From IMG/VR virus record IMGVR_UViG_2579778660_000002: a stretch of 19,645 nucleotides of DNA. One strand, 5' to 3'. Position numbers and translations under genes: made by a program. Of the stretch, positions 1,331 to 19,645 are shown one piece after another (position 1 is the first letter of the stretch; each line of letters begins with the position of its first letter). Under the pieces are notes generated by a model that saw nothing but the letters and a program-made list of their open reading frames with translations, ran no database searches and was not told where the DNA came from. This stretch comes from a virus (lineage: Duplodnaviria; Heunggongvirae; Uroviricota; Caudoviricetes).

Positions 1331-1440
1331 GCTTTTTTATACTAAGTTGGCATTATAAAAAAGCATTGCTTATCAATTTGTTGCAACGAACAGGTCACTA
1401 TCAGTCAAAATAAAATCATTATTTGATTTCAATTTTGTCC
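1331..1440. other. attL: lambda att core GCTTTTTTATACTAA (1331-1345) followed by the lambda attP P' arm
   Basis: Exact 15-bp core directly visible; left flank ...GTTGAAGCCT matches the bacterial B arm of attB, right flank GTTGGCATTATAAAAAAGCATTGCTTATCAATTTGTTGCAACGAACAGGTCACTATCAGTCAAAATAAAATCATTATTTGATTTC matches recalled lambda P' arm (Int arm-type and IHF sites). Confidence 0.9.
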
Positions 1441-5957: not shown

Positions 5958-6149
5958 TCATACCTGGTCTCTCTCATCTGCTTCTGCTTTCGCCACCATC
6001 ATTTCCAGCTTTTGTGAAAGGGATGCGGCTAACGTGTGAAATTCTTCGTCTGTTTCTACTGGTATTGGCACAAACCTGACTCCAATTTGAGCGAGGCTAT
6101 GTGCCATCTCGATACTCGTTCTTAACTCAACGGGAGATGCTTTGTGCAT
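5958..6149 (-). CDS. Small phage protein, 63 aa (lambda orf63-like by position and length)
   Basis: ATG at 6147-6149 gives 63 aa; overlaps the upstream 63-aa ORF by 28 nt, the same overlap geometry as lambda orf61/orf63; ORF-track start at 6164 would run through the G9 tract. Confidence 0.5.
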   Translation of the reverse strand: MHKASPVELRTSIEMAHSLAQIGVRFVPIPVETDEEFHTLAASLSQKLEMMVAKAEADERDQV

Positions 6150-6313
6150 ACAGCCCCCCCCCATTTATTATTTATCTCCTCAGCCAGCCGCTGTGCTTTC
6201 AGGGGATTTCGGATTACAGAAAGGCCGGGAAATACCCAGCCTCGCTTTGTAACGGAGTAGACGAAAGTGATTGCGCCTACCCGGATATTATCGTGAGGAT
6301 GCGTCATCGCCAT
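6122..6313 (-). CDS. Small phage protein, 63 aa (lambda orf61-like by position), start overlapping exo stop
   Basis: ATG at 6311-6313; overlaps exo 3' end by 10 nt; ends just after the homopolymer tract. Confidence 0.5.
6154..6162. repeat. Homopolymer tract C9 (G9 on the coding strand) in the overlap of two small minus-strand ORFs
   Basis: Nine consecutive C at 6154-6162; lies at the frame switch between ORFs 6122..6313 and 5958..6149/6164. Confidence 0.9.
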
Positions 6314-6984
6314 TGCTCCCCAAATACAAAACCAATTTCAGCCAGTGCCTCGTCCATTTTTTCGATGAACTCCGGCACCATCTCGTCAAAACTCGCCATG
6401 TACTTTTCATTCCGCTCAATCACGACATAATGCAGGCCTTCACGCTTCATGCGCGGGTCATAGTTGGCAAAGTACCAGGCATCTTTTCGCGTCACCCACA
6501 TGCTGTACTGCACCTGGGCCATGTAAGCCGATTTTATTGCCTCGAAACCACCGAGCCGGAATTTCATGAAATCCCGGGAGGTAAACGGGCATTTCAGTTC
6601 AAGGCCGTTGCCGTCACTGCATAAACCATCGGGAGAGCAGGCGGTGCGCATATTTTCGTCGCGATAGATGATCGGGGATTCAGTAATATTCACGCCGGAA
6701 GTGAATTCAAACAGGGTTCTGGCGTCGTTCTCGTACTGTTTTCCCCAGGCCAGCGCCTTAGCATTAACTTCCGGAGCCACACCGGTGCAAACCTCAGCCA
6801 GCAGGGTGTGGAAGTAGGACATTTTCATGTCAGGCCACTTCTTTCCTGAGCGGGGCTTTGCTATCACGTTGTGAACTTCTGAAGCGGTGATGACGCCGAG
6901 CCGTAATTTGTGCCATGCATCATCCCCCTGTTCGACAGCTCTCACGTCGATCCCGGTACGCTGCAGGATAATGTCCGGTGTCAT
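6304..6984 (-). CDS. exo: Lambda exonuclease (Red-alpha)
   Basis: 226-aa translation [65 protein letters not shown]... matches recalled lambda Exo with a few substitutions; ATGA overlap with bet stop. Confidence 0.95.
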
Positions 6985-7326: not shown

Positions 7327-7459
7327 TTTTTGGGACTCCTGGCTGATTAAGTATGTCGATAAGGCGTTTCCATCCGTCACGTAATTTACGGGTGATTCGT
7401 TCAAGTAAAGATTCGGAAGGGCAGCCAGCAACAGGCCACCCTGCAATGGCATATTGCAT
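7295..7459 (-). CDS. cIII: CIII (FtsH/HflB inhibitor), 54 aa
   Basis: Hand translation of minus strand from ATG 7457-7459: MQYAIAGWPVAGCPSESLLERITRKLRDGWKRLIDILNQPGVPKNGSNTYGYPD*, matching recalled lambda CIII; absent from ORF track because under 60 aa. Confidence 0.85.
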   Translation of the reverse strand: MQYAIAGWPVAGCPSESLLERITRKLRDGWKRLIDILNQPGVPKNGSNTYGYPD

Positions 7460-7531
7460 GGTGTGCTCCTTATTTATACATAACGAAAAACGCCTCGAGT
7501 GAAGCGTTATTGGTATGCGGTAACGCCGCGC

Positions 7532-16740: not shown

Positions 16741-17482
16741 GTACATAAACGTACAAAATGTGATGAAAGTAGAGTGGCGTAAGCCACTATATTAAGATAT
16801 GACAATAGCGAAGAAAAGTAAATAACATTTTATGGACGTTTAATTGTTAATTATAAAAACTAGAGTGCCCGATATTGTTTATCTTGCTTTAAAATAATGT
16901 ACTCAAACCAAATTTTTGAGCTAAAAGCTCAAATAATATAAATGCAATGATAATGTTTAATAAGACAATTAGCTTGCTTTGTATTTTCATTTCGGAATAC
17001 TGTTAAGTAACTTTGATGACCCTAACAATAGATCGGAATTTTCTTAGAGTCAATGGTCAATGTTTTTGCTTGCAAAGCAAATGTTTTGGTGGTTATAAGT
17101 TGTCTTAATATAGTCACGCATGCAACTTGTTCCATGCGGAGATTAAAGATTGGAATATAACGCGAAGATGGAATTAAATTACATTTGCAATAACCAATTT
17201 ATTATTACTCAATAATTACCGATATTATTATTGTAAATTAATCATTAGAGTGCAAAAAGAAATGTAACGGCAAAATAAGAGGACGATAGCTGAGAAAAAA
17301 GCGTGCTTTCCCAATCTGGGGCAAATCACGTCTGAATGACACCTGAAAACAGGTGGTAGCCTCAAGAAGGCTTGGAATATTCTTCTTTAATGTTATGTAA
17401 TTCATTGATTTTTCGTGTACGATTTTAAGACATTTATTCCAAGAAAAATTTTTAACTCTTTGATTTTTCGACTCTGTATCAT

Positions 17483-17544
17483 CGGTCTCGAAAACCGGAG
17501 TAGGGGCAACTCTACCGGGGGTTCAAACCCCCCTCTCTCCGCCA
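17483..17544 (+). tRNA. 3' partial tRNA-Ser (serU-like): anticodon arm, long variable arm, T-arm, acceptor 3' strand and CCA; no 5' half
   Basis: CGGTCTCGAAAACCGGAGTAGGGGCAACTCTACCGGGGGTTCAAACCCCCCTCTCTCCGCCA matches the recalled 3' portion of E. coli tRNA-Ser(CGA); upstream sequence does not match the D-arm/acceptor 5' strand. Confidence 0.6.
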
Positions 17545-18128
17545 CTTTATCAATGACTTATCTCCCGACTTCCCGCCTTGCTTTTCCTAAACAGAACAAT
17601 CGTAGAATATTCTTGAAGGGTTAGATCGTCACTGTTTTCTGTTCGATACTGTGACATTCAGCACTTGATTCGCTATGGATCTGACAGGAAGGTTTTGAGC
17701 GAAAATTTGCAGTTATTCAGTTGTTTTCTTATCGGTCACCATTATTCTTTTAGACATTGATCCTACAAAGCTGCCGCAAAGTTGGTGGTGGGAACTGAAG
17801 TTGCGTAGAGAAGGGGTCAATACCCGGAGGCAAACATGGGCTGGCAAAAGTGTAGCGGTATTAGGCGCAGCTATTTAGCCTAGTTATGTTTTATGAAAAC
17901 TTGATATCATATAAGTGTCTTACTTATTGGCTGTAAATAAGTTTTTCCTAAGGAATTGTTTCTTGAGTATCATTTGTAACTGTAACGGAATTTATAATCC
18001 TTTGCTTTATTGTTACGGTATTTTTTATCACACCCTATTTTTTATGTGGTTTTTTATACTGAAGTTTGGCAAAGTGAACTTTATATGCATATACTTCATC
18101 CTGGTTTCAGTTAAGTTGGGTGGATGAT

Positions 18129-18872
18129 ATGGCAACTACATGTTCAGTTATATTGATTTTGGAGTCCTTTGATGTTTATTTCGGAAAAGAGAGTGTGTTT
18201 CTGGAGAGAGGTTCATCTGTACTTGTCGACTCTAGCTCTAGAGATTTTTTCCTGACATATCCTGAAAGAGTGATAGTGGCGGATTTTGGCGCTGAGTTTA
18301 TTAGTCGCTATTTGAAAGCTAATAACTTAAGGGATATTTCTGATTGTAGGGAATATCCATCTTATTTAAAAATAAACTTTGCTGACTTCAGTTTAATTAA
18401 AGGATTAATTAGTTGGGCTAATCACTGTGCTGAATACATAGAAATTTTTGATGAGTCTATTGCTTTTACATGTCTCTCTGCATTTTCTTCTGAAAAACAA
18501 TTTGGAGTATTTCTGTTTGAATGTTTGAAAAGCACAGGGGCTAAAGTTAAAACGATTATTCATACGGATTTATCTGCACCATGGCGTCTTAAGGATATAT
18601 CATCAAGATTATATCTCAGCGAAAGTTTACTAAAGAGGAAATTGAAAGAAGAGGGGGTATCATTCAGTAAGATCATACTTGATGAGAGGATGCAAATGGC
18701 TGAATATTTACTCAGCACTCGTTGTTATCCTATTAGTAAAGTAGCTAAGGTCTGTGGTTATGCCAGTGTTTCATACTTTACTTATGTATTTAGACGTTAT
18801 TTTGGTGTTTCTCCAAGTCAATACTCTCAGAGCAGTTCAGAAAGTAAAATTCTTACTCACCAGGGAATCTGA
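18129..18872 (+). CDS. AraC/XylS-family transcriptional regulator (Rns/AggR/AppY-like)
   Basis: ATG at 18129 with GGGTGGA upstream (ORF-track start 18120 is GTG); C-terminal double HTH ...LYLSESLLKRKLKEEGVSFSKIILDERMQMAEYLLSTRCYPISKVAKVCGYASVSYFTYVFRRYFGVSPSQY; long AT-rich upstream region. Confidence 0.85.
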   Translation: MATTCSVILILESFDVYFGKESVFLERGSSVLVDSSSRDFFLTYPERVIVADFGAEFISRYLKANNLRDISDCREYPSYLKINFADFSLIKGLISWANHCAEYIEIFDESIAFTCLSAFSSEKQFGVFLFECLKSTGAKVKTIIHTDLSAPWRLKDISSRLYLSESLLKRKLKEEGVSFSKIILDERMQMAEYLLSTRCYPISKVAKVCGYASVSYFTYVFRRYFGVSPSQYSQSSSESKILTHQGI

Positions 18873-18888
18873 TCATTGTTCTTGCCCC

Positions 18889-19384
18889 CTTATTTCCAGA
18901 CAGGGGGTGTATCTTAAGTTAACGTTACCCGCTGACGTCGATATTCTCGCGGAGAGCGATAACCCAACGCACTGTGCGGATGGTTTTCATTGTAATGTTC
19001 GATCGCCACTGCAAGATTATGCAATGCCGTTCTTACATTCGGTTTCGGCATGAACGCGATGTAGTCTTCCTTCATCGTTTTCACGAACCTTTCTGCCATT
19101 CCATTACTCTGAGGACTGCTGATTGCCGTTGTGCAGGGCTCCAGATTCAACTCTCTGGCGAACTGCCATGTTTCATGCGCTCTATACGCTGAACCGTTAT
19201 CTGTCAGCCACTGGATGGACTGTTCCGGTACTTTATCGCCAAAGCGTTTTTCTATCGCTCCTAACATGACATCCTGCACTGTCGCTTTATCGTAACCTCC
19301 CGTGCTTGCGGCCCAGTCTATGGCTTCACGATCGCAACAGTCCAGGGCGAACGTAACACGCAGTTTTGAATCGCCACGGGTTTA
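18889..19384 (-). mobile_element. IS3-family (IS2-like) fragment: terminal inverted repeat plus 3' ~155 codons of orfB (DDE transposase), 5' part missing
   Basis: Minus-strand translation ...[42 protein letters not shown]...[19 protein letters not shown] resembles recalled IS2 InsD C-terminal half; 18891-18913 TTGCCCCCTTATTTCCAGACAGG resembles the IS2 terminal repeat; homology stops near 19384. Confidence 0.7.
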
Positions 19385-19429
19385 ACAGACACCTCAGAGT
19401 CATTTAAGATGGCTTAAAGAGAGGTGCCC

Positions 19430-19645
19430 ATGAGCGGTAAGCGTTATCCCGAAGAGTTTAAAACTGAAGCAGTCAAACAGGTTGTTGATCGCGGTTATTC
19501 TGTTGCCAGCGTTGCAACACGTCTCGATATCACCACCCACAGCCTTTATGCCTGGATAAAGAAGTACGGTCCGGATTACTCCACTTTTTCATCAAGCCAA
19601 TCCGCCCACCACTGCATCATTTCTCTGCGCTTATCGAAATACTGA
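19430..19645 (+). CDS. IS3-family transposase OrfA (HTH), apparently truncated or disrupted after about 48 codons
   Basis: ATG at 19430 preceded by AAAGAGAGG; MSGKRYPEEFKTEAVKQVVDRGYSVASVATRLDITTHSLYAWIKKYGPD is a typical IS3-family OrfA N-terminus; the tail DYSTFSSSQSAHHCIISLRLSKY is atypical; opposite orientation to the orfB fragment. Confidence 0.65.
   Translation: MSGKRYPEEFKTEAVKQVVDRGYSVASVATRLDITTHSLYAWIKKYGPDYSTFSSSQSAHHCIISLRLSKY

Follow-up and report, generated by a model that had tools for sequence, protein, structure and literature searches.

The window analyzed here, a stretch of DNA of 19,645 nucleotides, starts inside ybhC and contains an uninterrupted plus-strand open reading frame (ORF) running from an ATG at position 18129, or an alternative GTG at 18120, to a stop at 18872. 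The ATG form encodes 247 amino acids and is the form called by RefSeq (WP_000246057.1, AraC-family regulator) in identical DNA of APEC O78. The C-terminal 100 residues of the product match the Pfam domains HTH_AraC (60.7 bits; cutoff, 26.6) and HTH_18 (57.8 bits; cutoff, 33.6) over residues 161 to 237, giving it the C-terminal double helix-turn-helix of about 100 residues that marks the AraC/XylS family. The protein also matches phrog_1450 (4e-94). The features of the locus and its surroundings are as follows.

1331 to 1345, plus strand: attL, a lambda att core adjoining ybhC that marks the left end of the patE-carrying prophage and is identical to GCTTTTTTATACTAA (chance expectation, 0).
14233 to 16443, plus strand: side tail-fiber gene, truncated at its 5' end so that the last 736 codons remain, and including a Peptidase_S74 chaperone domain (PF13884 at 5e-12).
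16492 to 16623, plus strand: tail-fiber-assembly (tfa) remnant, corresponding to an APEC O78 RefSeq pseudogene (L001, 20093 to 20224; offset, 3601).
16624 to 17287, no strand: AT-rich spacer after tfa, 29.8% GC.
17288 to 17482, plus strand: phage arm (P) of the fossil attR left by a lambdoid prophage once integrated at serU, matching an ST131 serU prophage and the right end of phage SerU-LTIIb.
17483 to 17545, plus strand: the 3' ~62 nucleotides of the serU tRNA-Ser gene (att core), truncated and non-functional, aligning to K-12 serU.
17546 to 17822, plus strand: native chromosomal DNA from downstream of serU, 277 bp, 40.8% GC; B' arm of the fossil attR.
17823 to 17877, no strand: IS630-family transposase gene fragment, 55 bp, 52.7% GC, 92.9% identical to an annotated IS630-family transposase.
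17878 to 18128, plus strand: AT-rich region directly upstream of the ORF, 251 bp, 29.9% GC.
18129 to 18872, plus strand: the ORF, assigned below to patE, encoding an intact AraC/XylS-family regulator of 247 amino acids (supported by the ORF itself, Pfam, RefSeq, and a match in strain Sakai).
18875 to 19366, minus strand: partial IS3-family (ISEc48-like) element containing an integrase-core pseudogene, at the position homologous to the Sakai "ISEc48 Family: IS3 partial" element; the pseudogene is annotated by RefSeq in APEC O78.
19430 to 19576, plus strand: second IS3-family transposase (orfA) fragment, a RefSeq pseudogene.

The product of the ORF is identical to Sakai ECs_0287 at 245 of 247 residues, without gaps and at equal length; the two substitutions are E131G and S235R in the EHEC protein. 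The similarity extends to the surrounding DNA, with window positions 17482 to 19350 matching the Sakai sequence around ECs_0287, through the partial ISEc48 element, at 99.2% identity over 1,869 bp. The two genes thus share both a near-identical full-length product and a common surrounding module, as is expected of orthologues. ECs_0287 is the sole AraC-type gene in the Sakai prophage Sp1 at thrW, which is the counterpart of EDL933 CP-933H (O-island 8, OI-8). PatE has been assigned to z0321 on OI-8 (PMC10877973) and described as CP-933H encoded (PMC11879457), and the tail-fiber genes of CP-933H are Z0314 and Z0316 (PMC4048457). The latter two fit the gene order from ECs_0280 to ECs_0287 with a constant offset of 34. 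ECs_0287 is thus EDL933 Z0321, and hence PatE, on the basis of published locus numbers and the equivalence of the two prophages rather than of direct sequence comparison. Taken together, the 245/247 match, the shared DNA, the equivalence of Sp1 and CP-933H, and the z0321 assignment identify the ORF at 18129 to 18872 as patE, an already named and characterized prophage-encoded AraC-type activator.

According to one review (PMC10877973, citing Bender 2012), PatE activates gadB, gadC, gadE, and hdeAB, with a target in the region from -132 to -45 of the hdeA promoter; its expression in EHEC is higher in stationary phase, and six LEE genes are down-regulated by it. It also reports that acid-resistance genes are down-regulated in an EHEC patE-null mutant (PMC10877973). 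Further, a preprint describes E. coli Nissle overexpressing a "patE" homolog, so named by its authors and of uncompared sequence, with increased survival at pH 2.5 and induction of AR2-5 genes. The gene had been attributed beforehand to a group controlling stress or virulence regulons, which agrees with that review, where PatE activates acid resistance and represses LEE genes; what the preliminary description missed is that the regulator is a named, characterized gene. In this respect the finding is already known: PatE has a name and published targets, and RefSeq annotates the window copy as an AraC-family regulator.

The carrier is a lambda-like prophage that occupies the lambda attachment site and has undergone heavy deletion. 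A lambda-type integrase is encoded at 1419 to 2489 on the minus strand, and in APEC O78 the ybhB junction, with a matching attR core, lies ~230 bp past the position of the window end. The prophage is without immunity, replication, and most structural genes; bet is a remnant, and ral runs directly into a Q remnant. At a deletion junction at 14162/14163, 3,998 bp present in APEC O78 are gone, and a nohD-like packaging gene is fused to the middle of the tail-fiber gene; a search of 5,426 complete E. coli genomes recovered this junction in none of them. The IS2 copy near xis in APEC O78 is also missing from the window. A 5.3-kb segment of DLP12-like late-region DNA (96% identity) runs from an nmpC/ompC-like porin gene through the lysis genes to nohD. 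This OmpC/NmpC-type gene, flanked by the Q remnant on one side and the lysis genes on the other (8799 to 9881, minus strand), is intact at 360 amino acids; its counterpart in K-12 DLP12 is disrupted by IS5. The sole Rfam match at the gathering threshold is a lambda cIII thermoregulator RNA element (RF01804, 88.5 bits) at 7414 to 7472 on the minus strand, upstream of the cIII gene.

Searches of phage records with tblastn recovered PatE at 98 to 99% identity in the lambdoid phages ev099, mEp332, and PhiR70_1, and window positions 16498 to 19645 are colinear with these three records at 99.1 to 99.3% identity. In each of them patE and the IS remnants, including both IS3-family fragments, lie between the tail-fiber genes or tfa and attP/int; the order in ev099 is J, lom, tail fiber, tfa, spacer, patE, two IS3-family fragments, attP with the lambda core, int, and xis. 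Since the same patE/IS arrangement occurs between the tail fiber and attP in phage genomes, patE is a genuine moron of the phage, located in the b region of the prophage and not at its edge. The b region, from the tail-fiber genes to attP, is non-essential. As is typical of morons, the gene lies between modules of a phage genome, is rare among phages (a copy at 95% identity or above in only 4 of 50,697 phage records), and differs in composition from its surroundings, with 34.9% GC versus 44.1% for the whole window. The preliminary description had already recognized an AraC-family moron placed after a tail-fiber remnant, and both points are borne out by the Pfam domains, by the identical placement in the three phages, and by the truncated tail-fiber gene and tfa remnant that precede patE. 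Its location of the gene at a prophage/IS boundary, in contrast, does not stand, as the IS remnants belong to the phage genome and the attR core lies beyond the window end. Past the patE stop, no terminator-like site was detected.

The patE module also occurs at the tail-fiber end of unrelated degraded prophages, as at thrW in O157; in ETEC6333 it adjoins a prophage with yfdP/yfdQ, which are CPS-53 genes in K-12. The copy on CP-933H/Sp1 of O157:H7 resembles the window copy in having the serU fragment, the 277-bp flank, and the IS630 fragment upstream and the ISEc48 remnant downstream, and differs in its carrier. Here patE lies in a prophage with a lambda-type int at the lambda att site and follows a lambdoid tail fiber, whereas in O157 the carrier is the prophage Sp1 at thrW, with a pinE/GIY-YIG segment before it and the P4-like Sp2 after it.

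The DNA upstream of patE is a mosaic. From 16624 to 17186 the AT-rich spacer is 97% identical to DNA found downstream of tfa/tfaQ genes in many genomes. This part of the locus also contains a strong minus-strand hairpin resembling a terminator (11-bp stem followed by a T run) at 16716 to 16740, a sub-threshold Rfam IS009 match (83 bits, 16400 to 16583, plus strand) that falls in the tfa remnant and is truncated where the scanned stretch starts at its 5' end, and, at the position of 17238 to 17405, a small minus-strand ORF annotated in ev099. Positions 17288 to 17822 match, as one block at 96.8%, the right end of a serU lambdoid prophage in an ST131 strain. The 277-bp segment at its end is found in 5,405 of 5,426 complete E. 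coli genomes at 91 to 99% identity (mostly about 96%), and in C600 it comes immediately after serU. On these alignments, 17288 to 17822 is a complete fossil attR (P arm, core, and B' arm) inside phages whose present integration site is the lambda att site. Of serU only a 3' fragment is left, and ARAGORN found no tRNA in the window; a plastid match in a permissive Rfam scan of 16400 to 18200 was rejected as spurious, corresponding to this tRNA-Ser fragment. Chromosomal homology ends at 17822 after TA, and the IS630 fragment starts directly (TCAATA/CCCGG). TA is the usual target of IS630, and the breakpoint is consistent with real insertion of an IS at a point 277 bp downstream of serU, followed by its reduction to 55 bp.

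This structure bears on the ~580-bp AT-rich leader that had been proposed for the regulator. The 583 bp upstream of the ATG (17546 to 18128) have 37% GC overall and consist of segments of 277, 55, and 251 bp, of which only the last, at 29.9% GC, is AT rich as described; the remainder is serU flank (40.8%) and IS630 fragment (52.7%). The top sigma-70-like site in this region, TTGGCA-18-TATACT at 18066 to 18095, matches the consensus at 10 of 12 positions and ends 34 bp before the ATG. It is a consensus match only, and the number of such promoter-like sites is not above shuffled expectation. We consider it a candidate proximal promoter and see no evidence for a long transcribed leader. Neither an EvgA box nor a GAD box is present anywhere in the window, so the sequence gives no support for those inputs to patE.

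To place PatE within its family, we compared it with curated models and characterized regulators. The best NCBIfam model is YdeO (NF007407), which aligns residues 4 to 237 of the protein to positions 1 to 232 of 253 with 148.7 bits, below the cutoff of 348; the GadX model (NF007432) aligns over the C-terminal part only, with 109.2 bits against a cutoff of 500. With both scores under the curated cutoffs, and identity to YdeO at 35%, PatE is not a YdeO or GadX equivalog. Full-length alignments are obtained with the K-12 proteins YdeO (35% identity), GadW (33%), and AppY (29% over 233 residues, E value of 6e-34), and PsrA (ECs_1087) aligns over 232 residues at 37%; GadX (35%), EnvY (39%), and YbcM (37%) align over the C-terminal part. 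An N-terminal M..CSVI motif is common to PatE, YdeO, GadW, and AppY. Among solved structures, the top sequence match is the GadX DNA-binding domain (2e-23). An AlphaFold model built from a 15-sequence alignment has a mean pLDDT of 68, with residues 71 to 129 below 50, and its C-terminal domain superimposes on the GadX DNA-binding domain with a target-normalized TM score of 0.89 and a root mean square deviation of 1.7 Å. By sequence comparison, PatE thus belongs to a broad Rns/ToxT/GadX-like set and, within it, to the YdeO/GadW/AppY acid-resistance branch.

The likeness to the Rns/AggR/AppY group that had been noted earlier is good for AppY and distant for Rns and AggR; YdeO, GadW, and GadX are the closest characterized relatives. 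The parallel drawn with appY on DLP12 extends from sequence to position and published function: AppY is homologous over its full length, its gene follows tfa remnants at the right-hand end of the lambdoid prophage, and published work has the protein activating gadE and the AR2 pathway directly. An identity of 29% is too low for an orthologue, making AppY a homologue of the same branch, or a paralogue, and the DNA upstream of appY is unlike that of patE. The signals of appY, namely anaerobiosis, phosphate starvation, ArcA, and DpiAB, are not known to extend to patE. YdeO and GadW/GadX, the nearest characterized K-12 relatives, share the regulon gadE and hdeAB with PatE according to the literature and differ in being core-genome regulators, whereas patE is phage borne. 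The EHEC proteins PsrA and PsrB are likewise prophage morons of the same AraC branch and work via gadE/yhiF, with PsrB also acting on hdeA (PMC10877973). They occupy another moron slot, downstream of Q and beside tRNA genes, and their identity to PatE is far lower. Another PatE-like family (243 amino acids, ~52% identity), apparently uncharacterized, was seen in L008 to L011 (gene at 6001 to 6732), phages Lambda_ev203 and 1H12, and others, in a moron slot between the Q antiterminator and holin genes beside lipocalin and DUF1722-type genes.

The patE ORF is present and 97 to 100% conserved in 542 of 5,426 complete E. coli genomes (~10%), with the best matches in APEC O78-type strains. Among GTDB species representatives, a scan that uses exact peptide words returned only three distant Paenibacillus AraC proteins and no close relative outside E. 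coli. Alleles in some other genomes are damaged: P0001, P0006, P0009, and P0010 are frameshifted or truncated, indicating that the gene is decaying in some lineages and that selection on it is not universal. The changes seen across alleles P0001, P0002, P0004, P0006, P0009, and P0010 are frameshifts near the C terminus, truncations, or fusion of the N terminus to the AT-rich ORF that lies upstream. The possibility that the regulator is a pseudogene, raised in the preliminary description, does not apply to the window copy, which is intact, unlike P0001, P0006, P0009, and P0010.

An intact ORF may nonetheless be silent cargo, for example, through H-NS acting on an AT-rich promoter and ORF, and make no contribution to the host under normal conditions. 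Such silence would be in keeping with the 30 to 35% GC of the ORF and the 251 bp before it, the loss of immunity, replication, and most structural genes from the carrier, the four damaged alleles elsewhere, and the H-NS regulation of the related appY. We regard it as unlikely, as the ORF is intact and conserved in the 542 genomes and in phage records, and as the review describes, for EHEC, lowered acid-resistance gene expression in the null mutant and a rise of patE expression in stationary phase (PMC10877973). Further, matches to the H-NS consensus TCGATAAATT are not enriched across the window (25 versus 29 expected), and none falls between 17554 and 19229. H-NS silencing, suggested in the preliminary description from the AT-rich upstream DNA, is a reasonable conjecture. 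A role in the service of the phage itself, in lysogeny, tail-fiber expression, or exclusion, might be suggested by the retention of patE beside tail-fiber genes in three lambdoid phage records, and is the least probable of the readings considered here: the gene belongs to the dispensable b region, where its neighbors are IS remnants and captured chromosomal DNA; it survives in prophages stripped of nearly all phage functions and has host promoters as its known targets (PMC10877973).

It is also very improbable, if slightly less so, that PatE is an Rns/AggR/ToxT-type virulence activator of fimbrial or adhesin operons in an avian-pathogenic-like lineage. Rns and CsvR do lead the full-length fold search (E value of about 3e-10), but with a TM score of only ~0.41 on a model with a pLDDT of 68. 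Similarly, PDB sequence matches to CsvR and Rns (~1e-15 to 1e-16) and ToxT (~4e-14) cover only the C-terminal half, and sequence similarity to Rns is restricted to residues 105 to 232 (E value of 1e-15) at an identity of ~20%, whereas YdeO, GadW, and AppY align over their full length with far better E values. PatE shares an overall two-domain architecture with Rns, CsvR, and ToxT and is distant from them in sequence. No fimbrial or adhesin operon adjoins patE, and the targets of the 99%-identical EHEC protein given in the review are acid-resistance genes (PMC10877973).

Our preferred account, that the gene is patE and functions by analogy with the EHEC protein, is one that we hold with high confidence; for expression in its own defective prophage, our confidence is lower. 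In this account PatE is an AraC/XylS-family activator of the YdeO/GadW/AppY branch, a moron of ev099-like lambdoid phages that persists in a heavily deleted ev099-type prophage at the lambda attachment site. Judging from its 99%-identical EHEC counterpart, its C-terminal double helix-turn-helix would recognize AT-rich sites in the promoters of gadE and hdeA and activate both, leading to activation of the chaperone genes and to more glutamate-dependent (AR2) acid resistance, chiefly in stationary phase. Where the LEE island is present, type III secretion would be lowered indirectly. For the source strain, expression and the same targets are what the literature on the EHEC protein would lead one to expect.

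The presence of a fossil serU attR inside lambda-att phages suggests that host DNA was captured by aberrant excision. We propose tentatively, as one quite possible history, that patE entered the b region by a natural capture of the lambda-bio type, in which a lambdoid prophage at serU excised aberrantly with host DNA. That host DNA would already have held the IS630-family insertion and the patE cassette before excision, and the att/int module would have been swapped afterwards. The rival route of entry for patE is a later IS-mediated insertion. A chimeric query (mtfA-serU joined to flank-patE) representing patE contiguous with an intact serU matched 0 of 5,426 genomes, an outcome to be read with the caveat that an intervening prophage would hide such an arrangement. 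If the capture proposal is true, ev099-like phages should raise the acid resistance of any E. coli that they lysogenize.

The identification allows patE to be annotated in non-EHEC lineages, across the roughly one-tenth of complete E. coli genomes that carry it, and the three lambdoid phage records with patE make acid-resistance conversion by lysogeny directly testable. The fossil serU attR in lambda-att phages, a modest evolutionary footnote, is the sole point that we have not seen described. In its serU junction, the sequence preserves a clear trace of how phage genomes can acquire a gene that regulates the host.
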